Positions 2,135-26,713 of a stretch of 63,145 nt of DNA are shown here, one piece after another; positions within the stretch are counted from its first letter, which is position 1; every line of letters starts with the position of its first letter. The notes under the pieces are model-generated. The model worked only from the letters and a program-made list of their open reading frames with translations, ran no database searches and was not told the DNA's origin. Source of the DNA: Acidimicrobiia bacterium (GTDB taxonomy: Bacteria > Actinomycetota > Acidimicrobiia > Acidimicrobiales > Bin134); contig JAJEDQ010000003.1 of NCBI GenBank assembly GCA_022821445.1, positions 1 through 63,145 of the forward strand. Reading direction: 5' to 3'. A program made the translations under genes and the position numbers.

Positions 2135-2174
2135 GTCTAGTAGCGACCTACCGCGTGCTGCCGGAAACTGGGAG

Positions 2175-2708
2175 CTATCCGGAGTACCGCCCGCGGAGTT
2201 CGTCGGCCAAAGGCTGGTTCTCGGCGTTGTCGGGGTGGGGGAGCCACTCCTCGCCCACCGACAGGTAACGGGTGGCCAACTCGATCAGCGGGCCGTGGGC
2301 CTTGTCGGGGGGGATGAAGTTCCACTTGAGCCACGGCTGGGTGTCGGGATGGCTAGGATCTTCCATCACCAGCGGGATGTCGGCGTCGCGCACCCCGTCG
2401 ATCATGGTGTCGAAATCGTCAGAGCAGAAGGCGATGTGGTGGACGTACTCGCCCTTCTTGGCCAACACCTTGTCGGGCCAGTGGCCGGGCTCAGCGGGCG
2501 CCCAGAGTTGGATGGACACCCCGGTGGGGTCGGGGTTTTGAAACGTGACCCACGCCATGGGGGTTCCGTCCATGTCGTCGGCCCCCTCCCCCCGGGTGAC
2601 CTTCATGGTGTGGCCCGGCGCCAGCACCTCGAGGATCTGGCGCCAGTCCTCCTCGGCCTGGGCCAGGTCTTTCACCAGCAATGAGATGTGGTCGATGTGA
2701 ATGCCCAT
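2175..2708 (-). CDS. VOC (glyoxalase/bleomycin-resistance/dioxygenase) family protein
   Basis: MGIHIDHISLLVKDLAQAEEDW... and YVHHIAFCSDDFD are VOC-fold signatures. I chose ATG 2708 because the track start at 2789 would overlap the thiolase gene. A GAGGAG lies upstream. Confidence 0.7.
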   Translation of the reverse strand: MGIHIDHISLLVKDLAQAEEDWRQILEVLAPGHTMKVTRGEGADDMDGTPMAWVTFQNPDPTGVSIQLWAPAEPGHWPDKVLAKKGEYVHHIAFCSDDFDTMIDGVRDADIPLVMEDPSHPDTQPWLKWNFIPPDKAHGPLIELATRYLSVGEEWLPHPDNAENQPLADELRGRYSG

Positions 2709-2734
2709 TTGGTTCTCGGTCTCCTCGGTGGTCT

Positions 2735-5837: not shown

Positions 5838-6755
5838 ATGTCTGCTGAGCGTGTTGGGCGTGTGCCGCAGAGAGGGCCGAGAGAGACTCGAGCCTGGCTT
5901 GTGCGTGGTTACCCACACGACGTTGGCTCGATGGTGGAATACAACAGACGCAACAAAGTGGTAACGCTCGGGTGGGAGAGCTACGTAGTCGATGTTCCTC
6001 GTGCCGCGTTCAGCAACGAAGAGATGCTCCGAGGTTGTCTCGACCAGCCTGGACGGAAGTCCTCGGACAAGGAAACGGCCTTCCATGATCTCTGGTATTT
6101 CTGTAACGAGATCGAGATTGACGACTATGTCGTGCTTCCTTCTCAGGGGCTCCCAAAAGAGGGCCAGTGGATCGTGGTCGGCAGAGTGACTAATGATGCG
6201 ATTCACGATGTAGGTATGGGTCCTGGCGCTCGGCTTCGTCGCGAAGTCAAGTGGTTGACGGACCGGATCCCGAAGTCCGAAGCGCGGATTGACAAAATAG
6301 ACGCGCGCAGATGGTCCGTAGTTTCACTGGATTTGGACCAAGTGATGGGCGTGCTCAGGCGTTTCTCAAAAGGCGACTACATGACAGGCGATGAAGCCGG
6401 GGTGTGGTCCGTTGACGAGTTCGAGTTTCCCGAAGGAGCCAAGAACCGTGTCGAGGTCAATCGGTACGAGCGCGACCCAGAAGCCAGAAGGTGGCGTCTC
6501 GAGCACGACGACTACACCTGCCAGGTGTGCGGCCTGAGATTTGAGGACCGGTACGGAGAGTTCGCACTTGGCTATATGCAGGTCCACCACAAAGTGCCTT
6601 TGTCACAGATCACTGACCACGACAACTACAAGGTCAATCCTGCGACCGATCTCGTAGCGGTGTGCCCGAACTGCCACGCAATGCTCCACCACCATCCCGA
6701 TAGACCCTGCACTGTCGGGAAGCTGAAGCAGGAGATGAAAGAGGCTCAGGAGTGA
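5838..6755 (+). CDS. HNH endonuclease (McrA/ScoMcrA-type HNH) with uncharacterised N-terminal about 200-aa domain, possibly PUA/EVE-like; candidate type IV restriction enzyme
   Basis: C-terminal CQVCGLRFEDRYGEFALGYMQVHHKVPLSQI...DLVAVCPNCHAMLHH is a complete HNH/zinc-finger motif. The N-terminal assignment is by fold-like pattern only (AWLVRG...VVTLGWE...DDYVVLPS...WIVVGRV). The region is visibly more AT-rich than its flanks. Confidence 0.7.
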   Translation: MSAERVGRVPQRGPRETRAWLVRGYPHDVGSMVEYNRRNKVVTLGWESYVVDVPRAAFSNEEMLRGCLDQPGRKSSDKETAFHDLWYFCNEIEIDDYVVLPSQGLPKEGQWIVVGRVTNDAIHDVGMGPGARLRREVKWLTDRIPKSEARIDKIDARRWSVVSLDLDQVMGVLRRFSKGDYMTGDEAGVWSVDEFEFPEGAKNRVEVNRYERDPEARRWRLEHDDYTCQVCGLRFEDRYGEFALGYMQVHHKVPLSQITDHDNYKVNPATDLVAVCPNCHAMLHHHPDRPCTVGKLKQEMKEAQE

Positions 6756-6785
6756 GTGGATTCGAGCGAGCCCGGCACGAATCAG

Positions 6786-8102
6786 CTAGGCAGCGACAGC
6801 TTCCGTTGGCCCTCGAACCCGATCTCGGTCGATTGCGCGGGGCGAAGCGTTCAGATTGTGCCGCCCGGCGGCGTCTTCAGTCACTTGGTAGCCGTGTTTG
6901 TGCACTTTCTTGTGGCACTTGGGGCAAAGCAGCACGAGGTTGGTGATGTCGGTGGGGCCGTCGTCGTCCCACCAGATGATGTGGTGGGCGTCGCAGGCGC
7001 TGGCTCTCATGCCGCATCCGACGCATTGCTTGTCGCGGGCGATCAAGGCCAACTTTTGGGCGGCTGTGGCAGCCCGCTGTTTTCTGCCCATGTAGAGCGG
7101 CTGGCCGTCAGCGGCGAAGATGGCGGGCACGATGCCCGCGTCGCAGGCGATGTGGCGGAGGTCGTCGACGTCGATGGAGGTGCCGTCGATGAGTCCTGCG
7201 TTCTTGAGCTGGCCACTGAGCGTGTCGTAGTCGACCGAGACGATCAGTGTGGTTGCCTGTGGATCGAGGTCACACCCCGAATCGCTGGCATCGTCGTTCG
7301 CGGCGCCTGTTTCAGGCATGTCGACCTCAAGCTTTGTCTCAGGCTCGCTACCGGCACTGTCTGCTCGGTCGGGTCGTTGGGTGACGAGCGCGACCAGGGC
7401 ATCGGCGCTGCGCTGGTCGTGGGTACGGTCGCTCTCAGTTCTGGAGTCCTCGCGGAACAGCCGATCGCTCAGGTCGTGGAGCGCGGTCTTGACCCGCTCC
7501 CCGGCGATGCGATCCAACTCGGCGTACAGGATCACCATCTCGTTGTCCCCGTCAAACACCTTGGCGCTGCGCCGCTCGCGCTGGCGCTCATGGCGGGTCA
7601 ACCCGTCATCGGCCCGGCGCTGATCCTCCCGGCGGGCCAGAGTCTTCTTGAACTCGTCGAGATCCTCGGAGATGGCCACGACGACCAACTCCAGCTCTTC
7701 ATCCTTGGATAGCGGCGCCCGCAGATGCGACTCACCCATCACTCGGGCGTGATCAATGGAGATCCACCCCTGCTTGGCCGCCTCCAACGTGTCGGGCAAC
7801 GCCTTGAGCGCACTAGATGTCTTGGCCTGCTGGCGAGCCTTGTGACGACCGAGCCCAAACTGGCGACACAGTTCCTCAACCGCATCCTGCCCTTGCAGAT
7901 CGCCAAATCTGCCCAACAGGGCTGCCAGATAGCCATCCAACTGCCGACGGGCACTGTCGGCTTGAAGGATCAACTTGACCAATTCACCCGGCCCCAGCCC
8001 ATCAAATTCAACCAGCTGAACATCCACGGTAGGCCTTTCGCTGCCCCGTGACTCGCCGTTGGCATTCGTGGTGTTTCCCCTGGTGAGAGCACCTAAATCC
8101 AT
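6786..8102 (-). CDS. DUF222 domain / HNH endonuclease (actinobacterial 13E12-repeat-type protein)
   Basis: 438 aa. The architecture is N-terminal DUF222-like (LKALPDTLEAAKQGWISIDHARVM), an acidic linker, then C-terminal CVGCGMRASACDAHHIIWW...NLVLLCPKCHKKVH, which is an HNH motif. Confidence 0.8.
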   Translation of the reverse strand: MDLGALTRGNTTNANGESRGSERPTVDVQLVEFDGLGPGELVKLILQADSARRQLDGYLAALLGRFGDLQGQDAVEELCRQFGLGRHKARQQAKTSSALKALPDTLEAAKQGWISIDHARVMGESHLRAPLSKDEELELVVVAISEDLDEFKKTLARREDQRRADDGLTRHERQRERRSAKVFDGDNEMVILYAELDRIAGERVKTALHDLSDRLFREDSRTESDRTHDQRSADALVALVTQRPDRADSAGSEPETKLEVDMPETGAANDDASDSGCDLDPQATTLIVSVDYDTLSGQLKNAGLIDGTSIDVDDLRHIACDAGIVPAIFAADGQPLYMGRKQRAATAAQKLALIARDKQCVGCGMRASACDAHHIIWWDDDGPTDITNLVLLCPKCHKKVHKHGYQVTEDAAGRHNLNASPRAIDRDRVRGPTEAVAA

Positions 8103-8164
8103 GCCACAAGTCTACCGACGCCAGTGACAGTATCCCCTGGTGGCACTGGGGCAGCGCCCGGCAA

Positions 8165-9004
8165 CTACACGTAGTTCCAGCCGAAGCGGCCCTTTATGCA
8201 GAGGTTGCCGCTTGTTACGTCGTGGTCGTCGGGGGAGGTGCATTTGACGATTTGGTTGTCTTGGACATGGAGTTCGAGGTTGCAGCCGACGCCGCAGTAG
8301 GAGCACACGGTTTGGGTGACGGTTTGGTCTTCGGGACGCCAGTCGTCGGCCTGGCGAAGGTCGAACTCGGTCTTGAACTGGAGGGCGTTGGTGGGACACA
8401 CGGCTACACAGTTGCCGCAGTAGACGCAGGCCGATTCGGGCAGGGTCACGTCGAATTCGGCGGAGATGCGGGCGCCGAAACCTCGGCCGGCCACCGAGAT
8501 GGCGTAGGTGTGCTGGGCGTCGTCGCCGCAGGCCTCCACGCAGCGGTAGCACAGCACGCACTTGTCGTAGTCCCGGATGTAGAGGTTGTCCTGCACCCGA
8601 ACCGGCTCATCCATGGTCTCGCCGCCGGGGACGTAGCGGCTGGGGTCGGCGCCGTAGTGCTCGGCCCACTGGCCCAGCTCATCGGCCTGGGACACGTCGA
8701 CACCGGTGGTTAGGAACTCCAGCACCATCTTGCGGCTGTGCCGCACCCGCTCGCTGTCGGTGTGGACCACCATGCCCTCCTCCGCTGGACGGGAGCAGGA
8801 GGGGACCAGTGCCCGGCTGCCGTCAAGCTCTACCACGCACAACCGGCACACGTTCACCGGGGTGAGGGTGGGGCCGTAGCAGATGGTGGGAGTCTCCACG
8901 CCCGCGGCATCGCAGGCATCCAGGATGGTCGCGCCCTCGGGCACGGCCACCTCTTGGCCGTCAACCCGGATGGTCACCGCGGTCTCGGTGATGGCGCCGC
9001 TCAC
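8165..9004 (-). CDS. formate dehydrogenase Fe-S subunit: NuoG-like N-terminal part of FdsA (2Fe-2S, 4Fe-4S clusters and the Molybdop_Fe4S4 domain) as a separate polypeptide
   Basis: Motifs seen are TICYGPTLTPVNVCRLCVVEL (2Fe-2S), CVLCYRCVEAC and CVYCGNCVAVCP (4Fe-4S), and CSYCGVGCNLEL...GNLCIKGRFGWNYV-stop (first Fe-S domain of the Mo subunit). There is an ATGA overlap with the upstream gene. Confidence 0.85.
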   Translation of the reverse strand: MSGAITETAVTIRVDGQEVAVPEGATILDACDAAGVETPTICYGPTLTPVNVCRLCVVELDGSRALVPSCSRPAEEGMVVHTDSERVRHSRKMVLEFLTTGVDVSQADELGQWAEHYGADPSRYVPGGETMDEPVRVQDNLYIRDYDKCVLCYRCVEACGDDAQHTYAISVAGRGFGARISAEFDVTLPESACVYCGNCVAVCPTNALQFKTEFDLRQADDWRPEDQTVTQTVCSYCGVGCNLELHVQDNQIVKCTSPDDHDVTSGNLCIKGRFGWNYV

Positions 9005-10779
9005 TGGCTATTTCCTATCAGGCCCAGCGACAAAGCGGAGCGCACAGCGGAGGCCGCGGTGTGGCCCAACCCGCAGATGGAGGCATCGACCATGGCCAGG
9101 GCCATGTCATCGATGAGCTCAGATCGCTGTTTGGTCAGTGGCTTGTCGGAGCCTTGCAGCTCCACCAGCACTTCGTGTTGGCGCTGGGTGCCCACCCGAC
9201 AGGGGACGCACTGGCCGCACGACTCGTCCCGGAAGAACTCGGCGATGCGGACGACCACGGCCTCCATATCCACGGTGTCGTCGAACACCGTCACCACTCC
9301 TGAGCCGAGGGTGGCGCTCGCTTCACGGGTGTCCTCCAGGGTGAGGGGCATGTCGAGGGAGTCGGGACCGACGAACACTCCGGCCGCGCCGCCCAGCAGG
9401 ACTGCAGCCAGCGAGCCAACCGGCCCGCCGGCCAAGTCGAGCAAGTCGCCCAGCGGGGTGCCGAAAGGCACTTCGTAGAGCCCTGGAACTCCTATCCGCC
9501 CCGACAGGCAGAACAACCGGGTGCCGGGGGAGCGCTCGGTGCCTAGTGATCGGTAGGTGTCGGGGCCGTCGATCACGATGTCCAAAGCGTTGATGAGGGT
9601 CTCAGGGTTGTTGACGGCAGTGGGCTGGGAGAACAGGCCGTGGGTGGTGGGGAAGGGAGGCTTGTTGCGGGGCTCGCCCCGGAAGCCCTCAATGGAGTTG
9701 AACAGCGCTGTCTCCTCGCCGCAGATATAGGCTCCTGCCCCCCGACGAAGCTCGATGTCGAAGCGCTGCCCGCTGCCGGCCACATCGTCGCCCAGCAGCC
9801 CCGAGGCCCGGGCTTGAGCGATGGCGCTCTCCAGGCGGGCAGTGGCCCGAGGGTACTCACCCCGGATGTAGATCCAGCCGTGGGATGCTCCGGTAGCCAG
9901 ACCAGCGATGGTCATCGACTCGATGACCGCGAACGGGTCTTGCTCGCACAAGATGCGGTCTTTGAAGGTGCCCGGCTCCGATTCGTCGCAGTTGGCCACC
10001 ACGTGCTTGTCCGCCCCCGGCTCGTCGGCCACGGCCCGCCATTTAATGCCAGTGGGGAAGGCCGCCCCCCCTCGGCCCGACAACCCGGAGTCGGAGATGA
10101 CGGCGATCACGGCGTCTGGTCCCATCTCGATGGCCGTGGCCAGGGCCTCATAGCCGCCATGTTCCCGGTACGACTCCAGACTGGTGGGATCGACCACGCC
10201 CACTCGGCGCAGCACCCGCAGGCCGGGGTCGCCCGCTTGGGGCAGTTGGAACTCCTCATTGTCATCGGCGGGCACCCGGTCGGGCCGCCCAACACCCTGG
10301 ACAAACAGCGCAGGGGCCCGCTCGCACTGGCCGAGGCAGGGACTGTCGTGGACCCTGGCCCCATCCGCGTCCAGAGTCGTCCGAAGCTCATTGTTGCCCG
10401 CCAGAGCGCACGCCGGATCGACGCACACATGGACGACATCGTCGCGGTGGCCGGGATCGGCGGTTCGGAGCAGTTCGTAGAACGTGGCCACCCCATAGGC
10501 CTCAGCTGGGGGAACCCCCAGCCGCTCGGCCGCCCCGTTCAAACCGCCAGGGCTGATCCAGCCGATCTCGTGCTGAAGCGAATGCAGCACCGGTAGCAGC
10601 AGGTGGCGCAGGCCGTGGCGCCGGCTGCGGCCCCCGCGGACTATCCGCTCGGTTTCGACAATGGAGGCCGCGTTGGCTTGGGGAACGATGGCGTCGATGG
10701 CGGCCTGTTCGGCTTCGGTGGGCTGGTCGTCCCCAAAGTGCAGGTCAGCCAACGGATGCCCCCGCAGTCTCGGGGGCAA
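9001..10779 (-). CDS. NAD-reducing formate dehydrogenase diaphorase subunit, NuoE-like plus NuoF-like fusion (FdsG/FdsB equivalent)
   Basis: The N-terminus carries a NuoE-type 2Fe-2S motif (VCVDPACALAG...CLGQCERAPALFV). This is followed by NuoF motifs GRGGAAFPTGIKW, YICGEETALFNSIEG and ESCGQCVPCRVGT. The likely true start is TTG 10752, preceded by GGGGG and overlapping the upstream TGA. Confidence 0.85.
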   Translation of the reverse strand: MPPRLRGHPLADLHFGDDQPTEAEQAAIDAIVPQANAASIVETERIVRGGRSRRHGLRHLLLPVLHSLQHEIGWISPGGLNGAAERLGVPPAEAYGVATFYELLRTADPGHRDDVVHVCVDPACALAGNNELRTTLDADGARVHDSPCLGQCERAPALFVQGVGRPDRVPADDNEEFQLPQAGDPGLRVLRRVGVVDPTSLESYREHGGYEALATAIEMGPDAVIAVISDSGLSGRGGAAFPTGIKWRAVADEPGADKHVVANCDESEPGTFKDRILCEQDPFAVIESMTIAGLATGASHGWIYIRGEYPRATARLESAIAQARASGLLGDDVAGSGQRFDIELRRGAGAYICGEETALFNSIEGFRGEPRNKPPFPTTHGLFSQPTAVNNPETLINALDIVIDGPDTYRSLGTERSPGTRLFCLSGRIGVPGLYEVPFGTPLGDLLDLAGGPVGSLAAVLLGGAAGVFVGPDSLDMPLTLEDTREASATLGSGVVTVFDDTVDMEAVVVRIAEFFRDESCGQCVPCRVGTQRQHEVLVELQGSDKPLTKQRSELIDDMALAMVDASICGLGHTAASAVRSALSLGLIGNSQ

Positions 10780-12664
10780 CGACCAACTCCACCCTCACCG
10801 CTGCCGCTTTGAACTCGGCAGTGCCGGATTTCGGATCCCATTCGGGATTGGTGAGCACGTTCACGTCGATCAGCTCGGGATGGTGCAGGGTGGTGAAGGC
10901 CAGCCCTCGCGGCAGGCTTGACACCACCCGGGCGTTCATCTCCACCGAGCCCCGGGGGGAGCACACTCGCACGCGGTCGCCGTCGGCGATGCCCAAACCC
11001 GCGGCATCGTGGGTGTTCATGTCCAGGCCGGCGAATCGGATCGGCGAGTCGTATTGACCGCTTTGCACTCCGGTGTTGTAGGAGTCCAGCGCCCGCCCGG
11101 TGGTGAGCCGCAAGGGGAACTTCTCGCTCAGCTCCTCGGTCGGCCCCTCGTGCTCTAGCACCGAGAAGGGGGCCGGATCGCGGCCCTCCAGGTCGTCGGC
11201 CCACAGCCAGCCGTGGAGGAAGGCACTGCCGGGATGGTCCTCGTCGGGACACGGCCATTGCAGGCCCCCGGCAGCCTCCAAGCGCTCCCAGGCCATGCCG
11301 CCGTGCATCGCCGACAAACTACGGAGCTCGTCCCACGCTGCTTTCGGGTCGCGGGGGCCGAGTTCGTCACCCATCGCCTCGGCCATATCGCAGAGGATGT
11401 CGATGTCGTGGCGGGCCTGGCCGGGTGGGGAAACCGCGGGGCGTACTCGCTGCACCCGGCGCTCGCTGGAGGTGACGGTGCCTTCGCTCTCGGCCCAGGC
11501 CACCGATGCGGGCAGTACCACATCGGCCATCTCTGCGGTGCGGGTCATCAAGATGTCCTGCACCACCAGGATGTCCAGGCTTTCGAGCTGGGCCCGGGCG
11601 TGGAGTGCATCAGCCTCGGAATCAGCCGGATTCTCGCCGATCACGTACAGGGCCCGAAGATCGCCCTGCTCCATGGCTTCGAACATCAGAGTTAGGTGCA
11701 ATCCGGGAACAGGGTTGAGCTCCCGGCCGTAGGCGGCTTCGAACCGGGCCCGATGGTCAGGATCATCCACGCTGGCGAAGCCGGGGAACTTGTTGGGGAT
11801 GGCCCCCATGTCGCCGCCGCCCTGCACGTTGTTCTGGCCCCGCAGCGGCACCAAGCCCGACCCCCACCGCCCCACGTGGCCGGTGAGCAGGGCTAGATTG
11901 CACAACGACAGCACGTTGTCGACTGCGTTGTGGTGCTCTGTGATGCCCAGGGTCCACAGGATCTGGGCCTTGTCGGCAGTGGCGTAGGCGTGGGCCATCT
12001 CCACCACGACCTCGGCGGGAATGCCGCAGATGGCAGCCACTGCCTCGGGGGTGAACGGCTCCACCGAGGCGGCGTAGGCCTCGAATCCCTGGGTGGAGTG
12101 GGCGATGAAGTCTTGGTTGGCCAGACCGGCGTGGATGATCTCTCGGCCGATGCCGTTGGCCAGGGCGATGTCGGTGCCCACGTCAATGCCCACCCACACG
12201 TCAGAAAATTGGGCCGAGGAGGTGTAGCGGGGGTCGACGCAGTACATACGGGCACCGTTGTCGATGCCCTTGAGGACATGGTGGAAGAAGATGGGGTGGG
12301 CCTCGCGGGCATTGGATCCCCACAAGAAGATCACGTCGGTTTCCTCAACCTCCTGGTAGGAGCATGTGCCCCCTCCCGCTCCGAATACTGTCGCCAGACC
12401 GACGACCGAAGGAGCGTGTCAAGTTCGGTTGCAGGAGTCGATGTTGTTGGAGCCCACCACCGTGCGGATGAACTTCTGGGCGATGTAGTTCATCTCGTTG
12501 GTGGCCTTGGAGCAGCTGAACATCCCGAACGCCTGCGGCCCGTGTTCGGAAATCACCTGATTGAACCCGGTCGCAGCCCGCGACAGAGCCTCTTCCCACG
12601 TCGCTTCTCGCAGGCTCTCGTTGTCCCGCACCATCGGCACGGTCAACCGTTCCCGCTTCGCCAT
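10745..12664 (-). CDS. fdhA: formate dehydrogenase catalytic (Mo/W-bisPGD) subunit, selenocysteine-containing (U at residue 82, TGA 12419-12421); lacks the usual N-terminal Fe-S domains
   Basis: Track ORFs 12419..12670 and 10745..12334 are in frame. Read-through gives NIDSCNRT-U-HAPSVVGLATVFGAGGGTCSYQEVEETDVIFLWGSNAREAHP, the FDH active-site motif. The start is ATG 12664, preceded by GAAAGGGG. Confidence 0.85.
12390..12406 (-). promoter_or_regulatory. candidate bacterial SECIS hairpin for the fdhA UGA
   Basis: On the minus-strand RNA, a GUCGUC-GGUCU-GGCGAC hairpin begins 13 nt 3' of the UGA. It resembles the E. coli fdhF SECIS apical region, which I recalled from memory and did not compute. 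Confidence 0.5.
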
Positions 12665-12835: not shown

Positions 12836-13677
12836 CTACTCAACGCGGAGAACAGACTGGATTCCCCAACATTCAATCGTCTGATCTGGTCGCAGACCGC
12901 AAGTGTGGAATGAGCCGGCAGCAATCGACGTGAATTGGCCTGCGGGTGGATTTGACTGTCCGTACGTATTGTCACCCCAGCAGCTGACCGTCCCATCACG
13001 CAATAGACCGCACCCATGATGGGTTCCGGTTGATGTCGCTGTGTAGGTGTTTTCAGCGGGAGACGCGATGACATTGCCGGCTGGCGACTCGTTGCCTGAT
13101 TCCCAGCAATTCTCCGTTCCATCAAATTTCAATGCGCAAAATTGAGTCTCGCTGGCAGTCAAATGCATGAATGGGCCTTCAGACTGGACCGGCATGTCAT
13201 CGAACCCCTTGCCCCAGCAAACCACGGACCCATCTGGGTGTTGGGCGCAGGAGTGATCCTTCCTAGCGACCACATCGACAAATTTGCCGTAAGGGGCGGC
13301 TCTTTGGCCATGACCATTGTGGCCCCAACAAGCAACCGTCTGATCTACCTTGAGTCCGCAATAGTGCTGTCCGCCCACTGACAGCTTTTCGAATTCTCCA
13401 GCAGGTGGATCCGGTAGACTGTAATTCCAGCAGTCAATATGCTTGTCCGTTCGCAATGCGCAGATTCCTTCGGCTTGCCAAAACGGATCAGCGTCTTCTG
13501 GGAACCGCGTGTAGCTGCGGGGCGGGGCATATTCAAAGCTTGGAATGGGTTCTAGGCATTCCAAGTCAAGGCATTCGTGCATGCCCCAGCAATCGACATC
13601 TCCGTTCACTCGCAATGCGCAGGCAAAATTAGAGACTCTGTTATCATGGTCAGCAAAATTGGTTCCCAAATATAAGT
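12836..13677 (-). pseudogene. RCC1-repeat (beta-propeller) lipoprotein gene, C-terminal fragment downstream of the IS insertion
   Basis: Track ORF 12836..13669 has repeated xCWG motifs (VDCWG, IDCWN, VACWGHNGHGQ, VVCWG, ENCWE, VSCWGDNTYGQ, IECWG). It abuts the IS end at 13678 and is markedly more AT-rich than the surrounding genes. Confidence 0.65.
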
Positions 13678-13701
13678 GGCTCTACGCGATGAAGCGGGGA
13701 C
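13678..13701. repeat. ISL3 terminal inverted repeat (right end relative to the transposase)
   Basis: See the IS entry; 21/24 match to the other end. Confidence 0.8.
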
Positions 13702-15005
13702 GTCGGGTTCTGATTTTTGTGACGGGTTGAGTTTGGCCGGGTTTTCGTCCGGCGGCAAGCAGGATTCTGAGCCGGTAGTTGTTGAGGTTGGTGAGGCCTC
13801 TGGCTGAGCGTTTGACGTCTTTGATTTCGGGGGTTGGCGGCCTCGGTGCGCCCGTTGTGGGTGCCGGTGGTGGTGCTGGTGATGATTTCTGCGCGCCAGC
13901 GCTTCAGGGTGGCGGCGAGTTTGTGCAGCTCGGGGGCTGCCTCGGGGGCGGCGCTGTAGGCGATGGCGTCGTCGAGTCGGTCGGCGGCCTGTTCGGGGTC
14001 GGCGGTTTTGAACACCGACCGGACTTTCTCCTTGGCCGCCCAGCAGTCGGCGACTTCGTCGTAGGGGTCGCCTTGGTCGAGGGCTGTTCGCAGGCGCTGG
14101 AGGCCGGCGGCGTCGAGGCGCTCGGCGCCGGTCAACAGCAGTTTGCGGATGCCGTAGAGGGGATCGCCTGCGCGGCCCCGGTGGCCGGTGGTCTCGGTCT
14201 GGGTGCGCTGGCGGCATCTGGTGAGCGCCTGGTTCGCCAGCCGCACGATGTGGAAGGGGTCCGCGGCGACCTCGACTGTGGCGGGCAGGCTGCGGTCGCG
14301 AGCGAGTTGTCGTATCGCGCTGCGGTAGCCCTCATGGGGGTCGACGCAGACCACCTCGACGCCGGCCTGCCGCCGGGGCTGCTGGTACACCCATCTGCGC
14401 AGGTCGGCGGCGTCTCTGCCGTCGAACACGTCGACGATCTGGCCGGTGGATGCGTCGACCGCGGCGGTGACGAACCGCCGTCGCCGGCGACGGGCGGCCG
14501 AGGCCATGACGGTCTCGTCGAAGCCCAGCCGGGCGACCTGGCCGACCCTGCCGGGGTCGCCGGCGATCTCCTCGGCGGCGGCCTCGACCGCTGACCACAC
14601 GGTGCGCCAGCTCACCCCCAACCGGCGGGCCGCGGACGCCACCGAGCCCTCCACAGCCGCGAGCCGGCCAACAGCCCACCGCTCAGCCCGAGAGGTGAGC
14701 ACCCGGCGCGGCCCGGCCAACTCTGAGCGCTCAGTCCAGGACCCCGCACCGCACCGCGGGCTGCGGCACTCCCAGATCCGCTTGTTCCACCGCACCCTCA
14801 CCGCACGGCCGTCCGCGCCCGGAGCGTCTCTCAGCACCACCTCGCGGCGGCCCTTCGAGCGGGCCCTGCGCCCGCACGACCCGCAAAACACCACCTGCCC
14901 GCCGGGTGTCTGCACCCCCACTGAAACCTCGCCGTACGCCTCTTCGACGCCGGTCACCTCGAATCCGGCCGCGCCCAATTGCGCTGCCGTACTACCTTCA
15001 ACCAC
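13682..15005 (-). CDS. ISL3 family transposase with an apparent 1-nt frameshift in a C5 run (plus 13829-13833)
   Basis: There is an N-terminal zinc finger (FCGSCGRRA...WECRSPRCG) and a DDE_Tnp_ISL3-like core. After ...THNGRTEAAN the track frame turns into low-complexity PRNQRRQTLSQ... Shifting by one nt gives PEIKDVKRSARGLTNLNNYRLRILLAAGRKPGQ...RFIA-stop at 13682, the conserved ISL3 C-terminus. Confidence 0.8.
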
Positions 15006-15687: not shown

Positions 15688-17385
15688 TCAGCTCAGGCCG
15701 ACGATCTCGCCGTTTTCGTCGAGGTCGATGCCCATGGCGGCGGGTTGGCGGCCGAGGCCGGGCATGGTGCGCATGTCTCCGCAGATGGGGTAGACGAAGC
15801 CGGCGCCCACCGAGGCCCGCACCTCCCGCACCGGCAGGGTCCAGCCGGTGGGGGCGCCCTTGAGGGACGGGTCGGACGAGATCGACAGGTGGGTTTTGGC
15901 GATGCACACCGGGAGGTGGCCGAAGCCGGCCGACTCGTAGGTGTCGAGCTGGCGGTTGGCGGTGGCCGAATACTCCACGCCGTCGGCGCCGTACACGGTG
16001 GTGGCCACCGCGGCGATCTTGTCTTTGAGCGAGAGGTCGTCCTCGTACAGCACCTTGAACGAGCTGGGCTCCTCGCAGGCTTCAGCTACTGCCTCGGCCA
16101 GATCGGCTGCGCCCGCGCCGCCGTCGGAGAAGTGGGTGGTGACCGCGCAGCGGGCGCCGTACTCGTCGGCGATCTCGCCGATGGCGGCCAGATCGGCGTC
16201 GTGGTCGCCGGGGAAGGCGTTGATGGCTACCACCGGGGTCACACCGTGGGCCTTCATGTTGGAGAGCTGCTTGCGGAGGTTGTCGCCCCCGGCGTGTACC
16301 TCGTCGGGGTTCTCGGCCAGCAGCGCCTCGGGCAGGGGCCGCCCGGCCACGATCCGGTGGTTGCCGGAGTGGGCCTTGAGGCCCCGCACGGTGGCCACCA
16401 TCACCGCGGCATCCGGGTCGATGCCCGAATAGCGGCACTTGATGTTGAAGAACCGCTCCGCGCCCATGTCAGCGCCGAACCCGGCTTCGGTTACCAGGAA
16501 GTCGCCGGTGCGGATGGCGATGCGGTCGGCCACGATCGAGGAGTTGCCGGTGGCTATGTTGCCGAACGGACCGGTATGCACCAGGGCGGGGCCGCCCTCC
16601 AGGGTCTGCATAAGGTTGGGCTTGAGGGCGTCCTTCAACAGCACGGCCATGGCCCCAGCGGCCTTCAGGTCCTCGGCGGTCACCGGGTTGCCGGCTTTGG
16701 TGTAGCCCACCACGATCCGGCCCAGCCGGGCCCGCAAGTCCGACAGCGACGTGGCCAACGCCAAAGTGGCCATCACCTCGGACGCGGCGGTGATGTCGAA
16801 GCCTGATTCCCGGGGGACTCCGTCGAGCCGCCCGCCCAGGCCGATCACCACGTTGCGCAAGGCCCGGTCGTTGATGTCCACCACCCGTCGCCAGGTGATG
16901 TTGTGCAGATCGAGCCCCGACTCGTTGCCGTGGTAGATGTGCGCGTCGAGCATGGCCGAGCACATGTTGTGGGCTGCGGTCACCGCGTGCATGTCGCCGG
17001 TTAGGTGGAGGTTGAAAAGCTCCATGGGCACCACCTGGCTGTAGCCGCCGCCGGCCGCGCCGCCCTTGATGCCGAACGTCGGCCCCAGCGAAGGCTGGCG
17101 GATGGCGATAGTGGCCCTTTTGCCGATGTGCCCGAAACCTTGGCCCAGGCCCACCGTGGTGGTGGTCTTGCCCTCGCCCAGCGGTGTGGGAGTGATGGCG
17201 GTCACCACCACATAGCGGGCCCTGGGCCGGTCGGCCAGCGCCTCGATGGCGTCCAGGCTGATCTTGGCTGCCCCCGCCCCGTAGGGCTCCAGCATCTCGG
17301 TGGGGATGCCGGCTTCTTCAGCGATTTCAGTAAGCGGTCGGAGATTCGCCCCGCGGGCAATCTCGAGATCAGAAGGAAAAGACAT
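15688..17385 (-). CDS. fhs: formate--tetrahydrofolate ligase
   Basis: MSFPSDLEIARGA..., TAITPTPLGEGKTTTTVGL, GIKGGAAGGGYSQVVPME and FNLHLTGDMHA are canonical Fhs motifs. ATG 17385 is preceded by GAGAGG. Confidence 0.92.
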   Translation of the reverse strand: MSFPSDLEIARGANLRPLTEIAEEAGIPTEMLEPYGAGAAKISLDAIEALADRPRARYVVVTAITPTPLGEGKTTTTVGLGQGFGHIGKRATIAIRQPSLGPTFGIKGGAAGGGYSQVVPMELFNLHLTGDMHAVTAAHNMCSAMLDAHIYHGNESGLDLHNITWRRVVDINDRALRNVVIGLGGRLDGVPRESGFDITAASEVMATLALATSLSDLRARLGRIVVGYTKAGNPVTAEDLKAAGAMAVLLKDALKPNLMQTLEGGPALVHTGPFGNIATGNSSIVADRIAIRTGDFLVTEAGFGADMGAERFFNIKCRYSGIDPDAAVMVATVRGLKAHSGNHRIVAGRPLPEALLAENPDEVHAGGDNLRKQLSNMKAHGVTPVVAINAFPGDHDADLAAIGEIADEYGARCAVTTHFSDGGAGAADLAEAVAEACEEPSSFKVLYEDDLSLKDKIAAVATTVYGADGVEYSATANRQLDTYESAGFGHLPVCIAKTHLSISSDPSLKGAPTGWTLPVREVRASVGAGFVYPICGDMRTMPGLGRQPAAMGIDLDENGEIVGLS

Positions 17386-17522
17386 GGCCCCGCCTCTCAT
17401 GCTCGATGCTTGATGTCAACCCCGCAAGCGTACACGGACAATCGAAGTGTGATCGGGCGAGTGTCAGAGTCAATCCTTAGAATCGGATGGTGGCATCAAC
17501 GGCGCCATGACGGAGGCTCGCC

Positions 17523-18927: not shown

Positions 18928-20409
18928 ATGGCGAACTGCGCGCTGGTGGCCGGGGTGGACTCCTCCACCCAGTCCACCAAGGTCGAATTGCGAGAAATCG
19001 ACTCGGGTCGGCTGGTGGAGCGGACCAGTGCCCCACACAGCCACGCATGCTGGGAACCGCCGGTTAGCGAGCAGGAACCGGCAACTTGGTGGGAGGCGTT
19101 GAAAGCCTGCTTTGCCCAATTCACAGATGCCGACCGGTCGAACGTGGCGGCGGTGAGCGTGGCCGGTCAGCAGCACGGGCTGGTGCTGGTAGACGAGGAC
19201 GGCACGGTTCTGCGACCGGTCAAGCTGTGGAACGACACGACTTCTGCACCTCAGGCCCGAGATCTGGTTGCCCGCCACGGAGCAGAGCAGTGGGCCCAAC
19301 GCTGCGGGTCGGTTCCGCTGGCATCTTTCACCATCGCCAAGCTGGCCTGGGTGTTGGAGCACGAGCCCGAGTTGGGCGACCGGATCGCTCGGATCATGCT
19401 GCCCCACGACTGGATCACCTGGCGGCTGACCGGTGCCCATGTCACCGACCGTGGTGACGCCTCGGGCACCGGATGGTTTGATCCCGCCAGCAACGAACTG
19501 GCTGATGATCTCTTGGGGTTAGCGGTCGGTGGCCCGGAGAGCTGGCTGCCGCGCCTGCCCCGAGTGCTGGCCCCCGACGCTGCTGCTGGTGAGATCACCC
19601 CGGACGCGGCCTCCGCGTTGGGACTGCCCGAGTCGGTGCTAGTCGGCCCCGGCACCGGCGACAACATGGGCGCGGCCCTCGGCCTGGGGCTCAAGCCAGG
19701 CGACGCGGTCATCTCCCTGGGCACCTCTGGAACGGCCTACTCGGTGTCCCGCACACCGACCAGCGACCCGTCGGGAGCGGTGGCAGGATTCGCCGACGCT
19801 GCCGGCGGCTTCCTGCCCCTGGTGTGCACTCTCAACGCCACCCGGGTCACCGACACGGTGGCCCAATGGCTAGGCGTGGACGCCCCCGGTCTGGCCGAGA
19901 TGGCTTTGGCCGCCCCCGGCGGCCCGAACCCGCCGGTCCTGGTGCCCTACTTCGATGGGGAGCGCACCCCCGACCTGCCCGACGCTACCGGGCTCTTTGC
20001 CGGGTTGCGCAATGACACCACCCGCGAGGAGTTGGCCCTGGCCGCCCACGACGGCGTTCTCTGCGGCCTCTTCGACGGTCTCGACGCTCTTCGGGCCGCC
20101 GGCGTGGACGTCGGGGGCACGCTTCACCTCGTCGGAGGCGGGGCCCGCTCGAAGGCCTACCGGCTGAGAGCCGCAGCGCTGCACGGCGAGCCGGTGTCTG
20201 TGCCTGACGACGATGAGACGGTGGCGGTGGGCGCCGCGGTGCAGGCAGCGGCAGTTGCCACCACTCGCCACCCGGCTGAGGTTGCCGCCGACTGGCCGCT
20301 AGGGAGGGGAGAGCAGGTGGAGCCTCCAGTCGGCATCGCATGCGAAGAAGTCAGAGCCCGGTATGGGGAGCAGCGCCGGAGATCGTTCCCACCTGAATCA
20401 GGACGGTGA
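18928..20409 (+). CDS. xylB: xylulokinase (FGGY carbohydrate kinase)
   Basis: VAGVDSSTQSTKV, VAGQQHGLVLVD, KLWNDTTS, GTGDNMGAALGLG and LVGGGARSKAY are FGGY motifs. The gene lies immediately downstream of xylA. Confidence 0.85.
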   Translation: MANCALVAGVDSSTQSTKVELREIDSGRLVERTSAPHSHACWEPPVSEQEPATWWEALKACFAQFTDADRSNVAAVSVAGQQHGLVLVDEDGTVLRPVKLWNDTTSAPQARDLVARHGAEQWAQRCGSVPLASFTIAKLAWVLEHEPELGDRIARIMLPHDWITWRLTGAHVTDRGDASGTGWFDPASNELADDLLGLAVGGPESWLPRLPRVLAPDAAAGEITPDAASALGLPESVLVGPGTGDNMGAALGLGLKPGDAVISLGTSGTAYSVSRTPTSDPSGAVAGFADAAGGFLPLVCTLNATRVTDTVAQWLGVDAPGLAEMALAAPGGPNPPVLVPYFDGERTPDLPDATGLFAGLRNDTTREELALAAHDGVLCGLFDGLDALRAAGVDVGGTLHLVGGGARSKAYRLRAAALHGEPVSVPDDDETVAVGAAVQAAAVATTRHPAEVAADWPLGRGEQVEPPVGIACEEVRARYGEQRRRSFPPESGR

Positions 20410-20434
20410 TGCCCGGCTATGGGAGAGTAGGCCC

Positions 20435-21589
20435 ATGTCGAGCGATCTGATGATGCGGGAATTTGGGGCCAACCTGCCGGTTCCGGAGTTCGAAACCACC
20501 CCGTGGACAACGCCACCTCCACTGGCCGAGGCCACCGTGGCCATCGTGACCAGCGCCGCGCTGCACCGGCCTGATCAGGATCTGTTCACACCGTTTGACA
20601 CGGGCTACCGGATGATCGACCGGAGTGATCGCGAACTGGTATTGGGCCACTGGAGTACCAACTTCGACCGCTCGGCCTTTCTGCTAGACCACAACGCGGT
20701 GTACCCCATCGACCGACTCGAGGAGCTGGCCGCCGACGGGGTAGTCGGCCAGGTGGCGCCTCGGCATGTGGCGTTCGCCGGAAATCAGCCTGACACAGTG
20801 GAAGAAGTCCGACTCGACACCGGCCCGGCCGCGGCGGCCGAGTTGAAGGCCGATGGCGTGGACGTGGCCATCTTGACGCCGGTTTGACCACTGTGCACGC
20901 GCACCGTGTGTGTGCTGGCCCACGTTCTTGAAGATGCCGGGATCACCACCGTGGTACTGGCCTCGATGCGTCCGGTGGCCGAGAAGATGAAGGTGCCCCG
21001 CACGCTGTACTGCGAGTTCCCGTTGGGTCGGCCGCTGGGAATTCCCGGCGATGCCGAGTTCCAACACGATGTGCTGCGGGCCGCATTCGATCTGCTGGAG
21101 GCTTCGTCGGGGCCTGTGGTGGAGGACTACCCCAAAGCGGTGGAAGCTGACGAGACTCCACTGGCTTGCGACCTGCCTCCTCGCTTCGACGCCGACCTGT
21201 CGCCACCGGTGGCTGAGGCTCAGGGGTTACGGGCCGCCTACGGCCGAGCTGTGGCTCGCCGTGGGGCCACCGAGGTTGGCCGGTCAATCGGCAGCGATGA
21301 AGTGCCAGGTGCGCTGGCCGATCTGGAGCGGGTGGTCGCTGGCGAGCACTGGAAAGAGGTTTATGGCCCTCGCTTCGACACCATCGCGGTGTCCCATGAC
21401 ATCCGGGCGTACTACCAAGAGGCCGCCTTGGAGCTGGCCGACGGCCCGCCTGCCGGTGCTCGGCAAGTGGAAGCTTGGTTTTTTGAGAAGACCGAGGCAG
21501 GCAAGACGCTGGCCGCGGCCCGCGACGCCCTCAATGAACAAGGGGCGCCCGGCGGCATCACCTTCTACATGGTGCCGATCGGGCGCTGA
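20435..21589 (+). CDS. glycine/sarcosine/betaine/D-proline reductase selenoprotein B (GrdB/PrdB) family protein, selenocysteine at residue 151 (TGA 20885-20887)
   Basis: Track ORFs 20363..20887 and 20906..21589 are in the same frame. Read-through gives DVAILTPV-U-PLCTRTVCVLAHVLEDAGITTVVLASMRPVAEKMKVPRTLYCEFPLGRPLGIP. This matches the GrdB/PrdB pattern U-x-x-C-T-R...E.AGI..V...P.A...R....PLG.P. The start is ATG 20435. Confidence 0.75.
20889..20908 (+). promoter_or_regulatory. GC-rich hairpin immediately 3' of the grdB-like UGA (possible SECIS component)
   Basis: CACUGUGC-ACGC-GCACCGUG can form 7 base pairs with one U.C mismatch. It has not been evaluated against a SECIS model. Confidence 0.3.
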
Positions 21590-21601: not shown

Positions 21602-22762
21602 TCAGCCCACCGTAGGTAGCGGGTCGCCGATGCGGGCGAAGCAGTCAGCGGCGGTCGCGCCCATGAACGCGGTACGCACCTCATTGTTCAGCTCGTCCAA
21701 GGCGGGGCGGTAGAGCTCGATGGGGTCGGCGTTGCCCTCCTGATGGGGATAGTCGGAGGAGAACACCACCATGTCGGGCAGCGCGGCAACCACGTCTAAG
21801 GCGTCGGCGTCGCCGAAGCCGGGCAGGGGAGTGAGCCGCACGTTGCGGTGCAGCATCTCCTCGCCGCTGACCGGCCAGGGCCAATCACCCAACGACGGGG
21901 ACGACAGGCACTGGCGCGACAGCGTGGACACGTACCAGGGGAGCCATCCGGCCCGCATCTCCTCCACCAGCACGGTGAGGTTGGGGAACCGGTGGAATAC
22001 CCCGCCGAACAGCATGCCGGCAATGAGGTTCTGGGCCGCGTGCAGCCGCTGGGTATTGGCCAGCCGGATCAGCCCGCCGATGCCGGCCCCGTCGGGCAGG
22101 TCCCAGCCGATGTCAGCCCACTTGGAGAAGTCGGCCTCGGTGTTGCCCACATGGATCACCGCCACCATGCCCAGCGAGATAGCCGCGGCCCACACCTTGT
22201 CCCAGTCGGGGTGGCCAGGCGGGCCACCGACGGGCGCCCCCCTCAGGGTGTAGAGGAAGAACGCCCGGGCGCCCCGTTCCCGGCACCGTTCCAGCTCGTC
22301 CACCGCGTGGTCCAGGTCGGAGAAGTCGACAGTGGCCACCGTGTGGAGGCGGTCGCGCCGGTCCCATAGCTGCTCGGTGAGGAAGTCGTTGCACCGCTGG
22401 GCGGCCACCACCCGATCGTCGGGGCGCAAGTAGTCTTGCTTCTTGCAATAGGCGCCCGGATTCACCAGGCTGTGGTCGATGCCCACCGAGTCCATCCACG
22501 CCACCCGCTCAGCCGCGGTGGAGTCGTGGCGGGGATGCAGTACCACCGGTCCGCCGGATTTCTCGGCCCGTTCGAACAACTTTGGAAGCAGTTCTGCTGG
22601 AGGGGGCCGCCGCTCCGCGGGCAGTACTTGGAGCAGGTCGCCGGCGATAGCGTTGGCCAGATGCGTCCGGTTGTCAGGAATCTGATCGGCCCACTGCTTC
22701 ATCGGATCAACCCCTGCCGAGTCCCCCGTGATCTCCCAGTGGGTATCCACATCGATGATCAT
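21602..22762 (-). CDS. amidohydrolase family protein (amidohydrolase_2 / ACMSD-like metal-dependent hydrolase)
   Basis: The N-terminal MIIDVDTHWE is the metal-binding HxH region. VFSSDYPHQEG near the C-terminus is the conserved Asp-containing motif. Confidence 0.8.
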   Translation of the reverse strand: MIIDVDTHWEITGDSAGVDPMKQWADQIPDNRTHLANAIAGDLLQVLPAERRPPPAELLPKLFERAEKSGGPVVLHPRHDSTAAERVAWMDSVGIDHSLVNPGAYCKKQDYLRPDDRVVAAQRCNDFLTEQLWDRRDRLHTVATVDFSDLDHAVDELERCRERGARAFFLYTLRGAPVGGPPGHPDWDKVWAAAISLGMVAVIHVGNTEADFSKWADIGWDLPDGAGIGGLIRLANTQRLHAAQNLIAGMLFGGVFHRFPNLTVLVEEMRAGWLPWYVSTLSRQCLSSPSLGDWPWPVSGEEMLHRNVRLTPLPGFGDADALDVVAALPDMVVFSSDYPHQEGNADPIELYRPALDELNNEVRTAFMGATAADCFARIGDPLPTVG

Positions 22763-25507: not shown

Positions 25508-26713
25508 TCAGGCCGCGACGGCGTTTTTGAGCAGGGCCTCGTTGGGTTCAGCGGGGAGCTCGCCTAGGGGGACAGCGATCTCGTTGTGGGTCGGGCCATG
25601 CTGGGCGGCCAGCGGGGCCAGGGCGTCGAGGTCGAAGCCGTAGAGGTCGGCGGCATTGCCGGCCAGAATCTGCTGGAGCTCCACCGGGTCGGTGTCGCAG
25701 AACACCTGGCGCAGGTGCTCGCGGGTATAGGGGCCGGTTCCCTCGTTGTGGGGATAGTCGGAGCCCCACATAACCTTGTTCACACCCAGCACCTCTCGGG
25801 CGGCGGCGTCATCGTGTCCCGGCTGGCTGATGCCCACCCAGCAATTCTGCTGGAAATACTCGGTGGCGCTCTTGGGCAGGATGTGGCTCTCGTCGTAGCG
25901 CATCTCGCCCATCCGGCCGGTGTCGCGGATCTTGGCCAGGGTCTCGTCCATGTGCGACAGTGCCCCCACCAGCCAGGCGCAGCCCTGCTCGGTCATCACG
26001 AACCTGAGCTTGGGGAACCGCTCGAACACCCCTGACAGCAGCAATTGGTAGAAGGGCCGGTGGGAGTAGAAGCTAACCTCGGTGATGAACAGCAGGTCCG
26101 ACACCGAGTACTTGCCGTAGTTGGGGACGCCGGTGCCGCCGTGGCTGTTCACGATCACCCCGAGGTCTTCGCAGGCGGCCCAGAACGGGTCGTACGCCGG
26201 GTCGTACAGGGGGGCGAGGTCTTTGCAGTCGGGTGGGATGGCCGAGATGAGCACGCCGCCGCGCAGGTTGTTGGCGGCGATGAACTCCACGTCTTTGATG
26301 GCCTCATCCACGTCGTTCAAGAAGGTCTGGCCGATGCCGGCCCGCTGGTCCGGATATTGGGCGCACCAGTCGGCTAACCAGCGGTTGTGGGCCCGGATTC
26401 CGGCGAGCCGGTGCTCAAGCTGGTCGGCCCGTGGCGGGCGGGCGAACAGGATGAAGCTGGGGAAGAAGGGGGGCACAGTGTTGGGGAACACCACCTCGCC
26501 CACCTGGCCGTCGGCGTACAGGTCGCCCAGTCGGCGCTCGTTGTCCCAGTTGCGCACCCGGCCGCCGTCTTGGAGGTCGCGGAACGGATTGCGGTACTTC
26601 TCCCGCCAAGCGTCGAAATCGCCATGGTACTTCGACTCGAGAAATCCGCGGTAGGTCTCGTGGTTGGCCCCGGCGTGGCAGTCGGCCGAGATGATGGTGT
26701 ACCGGTCGCTCAT
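25508..26713 (-). CDS. amidohydrolase family protein (amidohydrolase_2)
   Basis: MSDRYTIISADCHAG (metal-binding His region), SHGGTG and VMWGSDYPHNEG are the family motifs. It is a paralogue of 21602..22762 and 40194..41360. Confidence 0.8.
   Translation of the reverse strand: MSDRYTIISADCHAGANHETYRGFLESKYHGDFDAWREKYRNPFRDLQDGGRVRNWDNERRLGDLYADGQVGEVVFPNTVPPFFPSFILFARPPRADQLEHRLAGIRAHNRWLADWCAQYPDQRAGIGQTFLNDVDEAIKDVEFIAANNLRGGVLISAIPPDCKDLAPLYDPAYDPFWAACEDLGVIVNSHGGTGVPNYGKYSVSDLLFITEVSFYSHRPFYQLLLSGVFERFPKLRFVMTEQGCAWLVGALSHMDETLAKIRDTGRMGEMRYDESHILPKSATEYFQQNCWVGISQPGHDDAAAREVLGVNKVMWGSDYPHNEGTGPYTREHLRQVFCDTDPVELQQILAGNAADLYGFDLDALAPLAAQHGPTHNEIAVPLGELPAEPNEALLKNAVAA

Follow-up and report, generated by a model that had tools for sequence, protein, structure and literature searches.

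A stand-alone selenoprotein gene of the GrdB/PrdB superfamily, with a recoded UGA and a conserved SECIS element, in an Acidimicrobiia contig

The 63,145-nucleotide (nt) stretch of DNA considered here, positions 1 to 63,145 of contig JAJEDQ010000003.1 from an Acidimicrobiia bacterium (assembly GCA_022821445.1; hereafter the window), carries on its forward strand, at 20435..21589, a complete selenoprotein gene of the GRDB (GrdB/PrdB) superfamily, in which an in-frame UGA at 20885..20887 is recoded as selenocysteine (Sec) and the read-through product is a single polypeptide of 384 amino acids (aa). A selenocysteine insertion sequence (SECIS) lies within the coding sequence immediately past the recoded codon, the Sec residue aligns to that of a true D-proline reductase subunit PrdB, the protein consists of a PrdB-homologous core followed by a private C-terminal domain, and no partner gene was found in its neighbourhood. 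We consider it highly probable that this description holds as a whole, including the reductive-cleavage mechanism proposed below, whose chemistry and reductant, like the part played by the invariant Cys245, are suggested by analogy with PrdB, GrdB and GrdH.

The two open reading frames (ORFs) of the region, 20363..20887 and 20906..21589, lie in the same frame and are separated only by the TGA at 20885-20887. A sequence-only reading of the window had joined them through this codon, and read-through translation confirmed both their continuity and the peptide that it had quoted, DVAILTPV-U-PLCTRTVCVLAHVLEDAGITT. The Sec is residue 151 counted from the ATG at 20435 and opens the redox motif U-P-L-C154-T-R, while the gene ends at a stop codon of its own, the TGA at 21587-21589. 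The true start is almost certainly the ATG at 20435 and not that at 20363, because a GGAGAG sequence lies upstream of it and the homologues begin there, their N-termini aligning to its Met. It is located 25 nt past the stop of the xylulokinase gene xylB, a distance given correctly in the sequence-only reading, although the ORF start at 20363, which would overlap xylB by 47 nt, is not the real one. The extent of the gene is further supported by matches to PF07355 and TIGR04483 across both halves and by the BLASTP alignment to PrdB. The identification of the Sec codon is based on its conservation as TGA, on the Cys found in homologues, on the Sec of PrdB and on a second assembly; in fact, an independent assembly of the sponge-metagenome run X1 shows 0 differences from the window across the TGA, so this codon is not an assembly error. 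Contigs of a sponge metatranscriptome coming from both sides of the UGA (20459-20700 and 21281-21492) are weakly but consistently in line with expression of the gene.

The recoded position is conserved well outside this contig. Among 5.8e9 proteins searched, the relatives fell into two classes, namely 227-aa C-terminal halves, i.e., Sec forms cut by gene callers, and full-length proteins of 380-420 aa with about 50% identity. As anticipated in the sequence-only reading, homologues have Cys or Sec opposite the TGA: the column holds Cys in 11 of 16 full-length homologues (Ser, Gly or Ala in the other five), the second Cys of the U/C-P-x-C-x-R motif being invariant among them, and of 89 genes sampled as DNA (nine orthologous loci plus 80 GTDB species representatives) 87 have TGA at the aligned codon, two have TGT (both from Porticoccaceae) and none has TAA or TAG, a uniformity well outside what chance would give. 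In the 87 genes with TGA the halves are adjacent, in frame and exactly one TGA apart, down to 46% identity. The carriers are mostly Acidimicrobiia, accompanied by Pseudomonadales, Azotimanducaceae, Binatia, Dehalococcoidia, Entotheonella, Holophagae and Hydrogenedentota metagenome-assembled genomes (MAGs), with Gammaproteobacteria among the carrier classes; the closest species representative is an Acidimicrobiia MAG (95% identity), and the named relatives belong to Candidatus Poriferisocius, a genus of sponge symbionts. The five proteins with Ser, Gly or Ala in the Sec column (P0008, P0026, P0036, P0040 and P0068) keep Cys154 and the rest of the motif and, judging from their sequences, may be catalytically altered or inactive; the C-terminal part of P0008 looks frameshifted. 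In a Solirubrobacterales MAG (L092), a single 31-kb contig carries two Cys-form paralogues, P0059 and P0058, at 2050-3243 and 10001-11161, surrounded by cytochrome P450, short-chain dehydrogenase/reductase (SDR) and ATP-binding cassette transporter genes.

The SECIS element, at 20895..20919 on the forward strand, was recognized from an RNAalifold consensus, from covariation, from reduced third-position entropy and from its decay in Cys-form genes. Counting the U of the UGA as nt 1, the consensus of 85 distinct Sec-form sequences is a 6-bp stem (nt 15-20/26-31) with a 5-nt loop and two lower pairs. In the window the stem-loop occupies 20899-20915 (nt 15-31), with the upper stem at 20899-20904/20910-20915, the loop CGUGU at 20905-20909 and the lower pairs at 20895-20896/20918-20919 (nt 11-35 and 12-34); this conserved structure replaces the hairpin that the sequence-only reading had placed at 20889-20908. 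The element is 17 nt long, begins 11 nt after the UGA and falls within the codons for C-T-R-T-V-C-V-L. Its apical G22-U23 (G20906-U20907) is shared by 85 of the 87 sequences. At pair 18-28, 40 sequences have C-G and 45 have U-A, a switch coupling synonymous Arg codons (CGC/CGT) to a change from Val or Ala to Thr (GTG/GCG to ACG); compensating changes are also found at pairs 19-27 (A-U to G-C) and 15-31 (G-C to U-A), and the loop bases at nt 21 and 24 change together (73 sequences have C..G and eight have G..C), leaving G22-U23 at the tip. Altogether 99.2% of the cells are paired and double changes occur at four of the nine pairs, a degree of pairing reached by 0 of 500 column shuffles, and slid registers collapse. 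Since the state of pair 18-28 changes at least 16 times on a neighbour-joining tree, with the mismatched states of Cys-form genes counted in, the covariation signal does not derive from one inherited event. Third-position entropy at conserved four-fold codons is 0.69 bits in the element as against 1.53 bits gene-wide (p = 3e-5). By direct pair counting, Cys-form genes (n = 7) retain only 4-7 of the nine pairs, whereas Sec forms (n = 87) have nine pairs in 81 cases and eight in six.

The closest model for this element is the SECIS of Escherichia coli fdhF, a 17-nt stem-loop at nt 15-31, located 11 nt past the UGA and with apical G23/U24 (PMC8659212), with which it shares the nt 15-31 position, the length, the apical G-U and the placement within the coding sequence. 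It differs from fdhF in having the GU at 22-23 instead of 23-24, in the absence of the bulged U17 and in its C-G-U-G-W loop, whose first and fourth bases covary (C..G and G..C); the sequences suggest that the element may end in a tip of two nt, GU, with a bulge on the 3' side. A scan of the window against Rfam at the gathering threshold gave no match, hence no curated SECIS family.

The homology of the two halves is likewise continuous across the UGA. The GRDB family PF07355, with a gathering threshold of 22 bits, is matched by the full protein (32.9 bits) and by the N-terminal half (36.7 bits), and the PrdB model TIGR04483 (length 238) is matched by the N-terminal half at positions 24-145 and by the C-terminal half at 151-219. 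As the halves cover consecutive positions of the model, the TGA interrupts one continuous homologous protein, and the GRDB-family assignment made in the sequence-only reading is supported on both sides of it. Comparison by BLASTP with the product of the prdB gene annotated by the Prokaryotic Genome Annotation Pipeline on a Peptoclostridium acidaminophilum replicon gave 33% identity over 222 residues (E 2e-38), with Sec aligned to Sec (FTAG-U-GTCHR in PrdB, LTPV-U-PLCTR in the target) and the next Cys and Arg aligned too; Sec151 thus corresponds to Sec150 of this PrdB, in agreement with the PrdB-like spacing and the likeness to the clostridial Sec region that had been claimed from the letters of the DNA. 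The protein falls below the thresholds that define the named families: it scores 126.7 bits with TIGR04483 against an equivalog cut-off of 300, 48.7 bits with the TIGR01918 subfamily (glycine/betaine/sarcosine/D-proline reductase selenoprotein B) against 65.45, and 37-55 bits with the GrdB, GrdF and GrdH models against cut-offs of 600-800, the match to the GrdB model TIGR01917 (37.4 bits, cut-off 602) covering model positions 198-398 only.

With the PrdB of Clostridium sticklandii and P. acidaminophilum (TIGR04483) the target has in common the alpha/beta core, the U-x-x-C-x-R motif and the length of the N-terminal part, the UxxC motif starting at residue 150 in PrdB and 151 in the target. It differs in that PrdB has about 240 aa (26 kDa) and no extra domain, in the loop FPLGRPLG (VPIGANAG in PrdB), and in the hosts, which are Stickland fermenters for PrdB and aerobic-type Acidimicrobiia and others for the target family; furthermore, PrdB has prdA and other prd genes alongside, whereas no prdA, prdC, prdD, prdE or prdF is found near the target. 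In GrdB, GrdF and GrdH (PF07355, TIGR01918), the target matches the C-terminal half including the Sec region (about residues 197-400 of 431-435), while the N-terminal ~195 residues of GrdB have no counterpart. The GrdB motif UxxCxxC (PMC13188914) is UxxCxxxxC/S in the target, and none of the other genes of GrdB systems (grdA, grdC, grdD and grdE/G/I) is present in the window.

The PrdB-homologous alpha/beta core comprises residues 1 to about 222 (20435..21100, forward strand) and is delimited by the match to TIGR04483 positions 24-219 of 238, by conservation and by an AlphaFold2 model. Its invariant positions are H72, S74, D78, D85, H111, U151, C154, R156, E166 and R189, together with an FP-G-PLG-P loop. 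It is followed, at residues ~223-384 (21101..21586), by a private extension composed of a linker with Cys245 and of a helical domain in which E261, Y326, Y327 and W348 are invariant. This extension, put at about 230 aa in the sequence-only reading, is actually about 150-160 aa long (residues ~223/235-384), and true PrdB stops at aligned residue ~235, where it starts. It has no Pfam or NCBIfam match, and an exhaustive search of 1.8e9 representatives (191 hits) found it nearly confined to the architecture of the target; one protein containing it, P0139 (1019 aa), showed no Pfam domains. All of the 94 proteins compared have U/C151, C154 and C245, and some 50 positions show at least 97% conservation, with many polar residues among them, including Q210 and R271. 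The structure was predicted by AlphaFold2 for a natural Cys homologue, P0005, 51% identical to the target, from an alignment of 43 sequences. In this model (predicted local distance difference test 94, predicted template modelling score 0.93), the alpha/beta core extends to about residue 236, an all-helical domain spans 259-382, and the Cys pair is located between a strand and the N-terminus of helix 155-168. No entry resembling the protein was found by sequence search of the PDB, and Foldseek returned no PDB match at E <= 1e-3; the best had E 0.02 and a template modelling (TM) score of about 0.25-0.3, and the photocobilin proteins, which came out as best Foldseek matches at these TM values, were taken as noise and rejected as fold relatives. 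By neither search does the PDB contain a structure of the superfamily.

The ability of the host to decode UGA as Sec is suggested by a second selenoprotein gene on the same contig, 8.5 kb from the target. This gene, on the reverse strand at 10745..~12665, encodes the alpha subunit of a formate dehydrogenase (FDH), as indicated by matches to TIGR01591 and to the Pfam Molybdopterin family, and has an in-frame TGA at 12419-12421 in the context SCNRT-U-HAPSV. A hairpin 16-32 nt past the FDH UGA has a 6-bp stem and a GGUCU loop with GU at 23-24, a design like that of the target element. It is from the presence of this Sec-FDH gene in the window that Sec decoding by the genome is inferred, in answer to the refuting condition of the sequence-only reading that the genome might lack the machinery for Sec insertion.

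The target is not embedded in any recognizable reductase operon. Upstream of it, xylB (18928..20409, forward strand) is identified by TIGR01312 (436 bits, cut-off 380), xylA and xylB both scoring above their NCBIfam equivalog cut-offs, and the 25-nt gap between xylB and the target contains no terminator-like site, a scan for promoters and terminators around the target finding nothing; in the window xylB and the target are probably co-transcribed. The placement downstream of xylAB, noted in the sequence-only reading, is real and yet lineage-specific, carrying no functional weight. Outside the closest clade the two genes are not adjacent, the arrangement being interrupted or missing there: in a relative with 82% identity (L001), genes for a sigma-70 factor (ECF-type) and for a 701-aa putative anti-sigma protein stand between xylB and the target (6746-9372), so that a functional link to xylAB is not supported. 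In the window and in the related loci L007-L009 a similar pair of sigma and large-protein genes is located a few kb downstream of the target, and this shifted position indicates a local rearrangement.

As had been stated in the sequence-only reading, the window contains no grdA, grdC/D/E or prdA, and no member of the PrdA, GrdA or GrdE Pfam families was found in 14 Pfam-annotated neighbourhoods. When the 850 ORFs flanking the gene in 94 loci were clustered, no flanking family was present in more than 17 of the loci and none was consistently adjacent. The recurrent low-frequency neighbours, i.e., SDR-sized, luciferase-like, enoyl-CoA hydratase (ECH) and acyl-CoA dehydrogenase genes, are seldom adjacent to the target and were dismissed as partners, being taken as the background of catabolic islands. 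The protein is thus a stand-alone homologue with no obvious substrate, which is how it had been described at the outset.

On the basis of these features a mechanism can be proposed. SelB, recruited by the 17-nt SECIS, would deliver Sec-tRNA to the UGA at 20885; in the folded enzyme the selenolate of Sec151, at the N-terminus of a helix, would attack a carbon or a heteroatom of the substrate and reductively cleave a bond, and Cys154 would then resolve the adduct to a selenylsulfide (Se-S bond). A thiol donor, thioredoxin or another dithiol, would re-reduce the Se-S bond, possibly through Cys245 acting as a relay, the helical domain serving as a lid over the substrate. The enzyme would act in the absence of a pyruvoyl partner of the PrdA/GrdE type, and in that case the substrate would be neither D-proline nor glycine, and amines requiring Schiff-base activation would be unlikely. 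A bolder version holds that the domain bearing Cys245 replaces the pyruvoyl partner and makes the protein a self-sufficient selenoenzyme that cleaves a substrate already provided with a good leaving group, such as a quaternary-ammonium, sulfonium or alpha-substituted carboxylate compound of a kind abundant in seawater and sponges; we regard it as speculative and rather unlikely. If true, it would give a function to one of the ocean's most abundant selenoproteins. Whatever the mechanism, the identity of the substrate would account for a sizeable part of the selenium demand of marine organisms and sponge symbionts, and could reveal partner-independent chemistry in the GrdB/PrdB superfamily.

Several observations weigh against the reading of the locus as a SECIS-directed, bond-cleaving selenoenzyme. 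The proposed catalysis is modelled on enzymes that depend without exception on a partner subunit (PrdA, GrdE, GrdG or GrdI), and such a partner could be encoded elsewhere in the genome. In the 63-kb window there is no selA, selB, selC or selD, and ARAGORN detected no tRNA in it, and so no tRNA-Sec. The presence of Ser, Gly or Ala in place of Cys in five of the 16 full-length homologues means that some members cannot use the proposed chemistry. The folding energy of the hairpin is no better than that of shuffled sequences (z about 0 to -1.2), and RNAfold applied to the window sequence favours a slipped 10-bp register, owing to GU repeats; the case for the SECIS therefore rests on comparative evidence and not on thermodynamics. 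Finally, the RNA contigs were assembled from a related strain at low depth, and carry-over of DNA is possible.

Of the explanations that dispense with recoding, one would be that the TGA is a true stop, leaving a pseudogene or two genes of 150 aa and 227 aa. Gene callers do annotate the halves apart, dozens of 227-aa 'hypothetical proteins' being the result, and the GTG at 20906 is usable as a start codon. This start, however, falls within a conserved helix, the halves remain adjacent and in frame around one TGA in the 87 genes, the Cys homologues are single polypeptides, the TGA is aligned to the Sec of PrdB, and the SECIS shows a covariation that decays where the codon specifies Cys; these comparative data refute the true-stop reading, to which we assign next to no probability. 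Even less credible, to the point of being negligible, is a genome-wide reassignment of UGA to Trp or Gly (genetic codes 4 and 25), for which nothing specific speaks and which is refuted by the termination of the target gene itself with the TGA at 21587-21589, by the homologues, which mostly have Cys and not Trp or Gly at the site, by the second in-frame TGA at the canonical Sec position of FDH and by the position-specific hairpin accompanying both TGAs.

The rivals that accept the Sec residue concern its function. That the protein is the B subunit of a genuine D-proline reductase (or of a glycine, betaine or sarcosine reductase), with a PrdA/GrdE-type partner and electron-transfer proteins encoded elsewhere in the genome, would agree with PrdB being the best NCBIfam match, with the alignment of Sec and resolving Cys to true PrdB, with the label 'D-proline reductase (dithiol) PrdB' given to homologues by the JGI and with the selenoproteome surveys that place the family under PrdB (PMC1088965, PMC2398784). 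We judge it very unlikely, in view of the scores below the cut-offs of TIGR04483, GrdB/GrdF/GrdH and TIGR01918, of the lack of any prdA or grd gene in the window or in the Pfam-annotated neighbourhoods, of the absence of a conserved neighbour in 94 loci although prd and grd genes are normally operonic (PMC13188914), of the extra conserved ~150-aa domain with an invariant Cys that true PrdB lacks, and of hosts that are mostly aerobic-type Acidimicrobiia and Gammaproteobacteria. The main functional rival, unlikely in our estimate but to be taken seriously, is a selenol/thiol-disulfide oxidoreductase only, working as a thioredoxin- or DsbA-like redox relay without bond cleavage. The UxxC motif, by which Zhang and Gladyshev put the family among thiol-dependent redox proteins (PMC1088965), and its position at a helix N-terminus would be appropriate to such a relay, as would the third invariant Cys and the GcvH lipoyl-carrier gene directly downstream in one Cys-form locus. 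The fold, on the other hand, is not thioredoxin-like and has no significant PDB neighbour, the roughly 50 residues at least 97% conserved, many of them polar, suggest a small-molecule active site, the characterised relatives are all bond-cleaving reductases, and the Sec:Cys ratio of 87:2 in the sampled set, a weak point, fits a demanding nucleophilic chemistry.

The reading preferred here, a bond-cleaving selenoenzyme of the GRDB superfamily, also has to be related to what has been catalogued in marine metagenomes. In the Sargasso Sea survey, the 'proline reductase PrdB' (pfam07355, UxxC) ranked third in abundance among selenoprotein families, 42 Sec forms being counted against one Cys form (PMC1088965), and in the Global Ocean Sampling 'PrdB' was among the top selenoprotein families, with 235 Sec and 110 Cys forms (PMC2398784); reviews still place the family under D-proline reductase (PMC9312934, PMC13188914). 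The group described in these surveys (Zhang, Fomenko and Gladyshev 2005; Zhang and Gladyshev 2008) has the pfam07355 match, the UxxC motif, the excess of Sec forms and the marine aerobic setting of the target family, and on these descriptions the two are very probably the same. The target is therefore less unexpected than the sequence-only reading implied, 'PrdB' having been listed in aerobic surface seawater since 2005, and it probably belongs to an already catalogued family for which 'proline reductase' is probably a misnomer. The surveys pool the orphan homologues with true PrdB, and the C-terminal domain, the third Cys and the missing partner are not described there; no paper using the term 'PrdB-like' was found in a literature search. 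What is new here is the SECIS backed by covariation, the Sec-to-Sec alignment with true PrdB, the failed tests of PrdB membership, the recognition of a private C-terminal domain preceded by the invariant Cys245, and the finding that no partner is conserved. Public annotation still splits this widespread selenoprotein into dozens of 150-aa and 227-aa entries, and the SECIS consensus together with the Sec/Cys column would allow the automatic repair of the split genes.

A further orphan with a PrdB-like core is WP_207415257 of Roseomonas haemaphysalidis (302 aa, Cys-type), which has C-P-x-C at the same place, stands alone in an aerobic host and shares 33% identity with the target. It differs from the target in having Cys instead of Sec and a shorter, unrelated C-terminal tail without the helical domain, and it adjoins selO: on plasmid p546-2 (L096, 5860-8245) the 302-aa gene is convergent with the gene of the protein adenylyltransferase SelO. 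It represents a different orphan subfamily and, carried by a cultured aerobe, may be experimentally tractable.

Minor observations concern the surroundings of the genes discussed. In one locus only (L093), the gene directly downstream of a Cys-form member (11236-11628) encodes the lipoyl-carrying H protein of glycine cleavage (PF01597), which might serve as a dithiol electron donor; another GRDB-like gene is found on this contig at 19969-20856. In the window, three Amidohydro_2 (PF04909) paralogues are found at 21602-22762 (reverse strand), 25508-26713 (reverse) and 40194-41360 (forward), none of which matches an NCBIfam model; the first is convergent with the target, with 12 nt between the stops, and keeps this position in the closest clade. 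The FDH catalytic subunit has no N-terminal Fe-S domains of the usual kind; these (Fer2_4, Fer4 and Molybdop_Fe4S4) are encoded apart, downstream at 8165-9004, past a NuoF-like gene at 9001-10779. A pair of genes on the reverse strand at 12836-15005, for an RCC1-repeat protein (12836-13669) and a transposase of the ISL3 family (13650-15005), separates the FDH gene from that of formate-tetrahydrofolate ligase (15688-17400); since in L007-L009 the ligase and FDH genes are directly adjacent, the pair looks like a recent insertion into this formate/C1 cluster. Two ORFs for HNH endonucleases, one of them a DUF222-HNH protein of a type typical of actinobacterial mobile elements, are located at 5838-8102 beside the genes for the Fe-S subunit of FDH.

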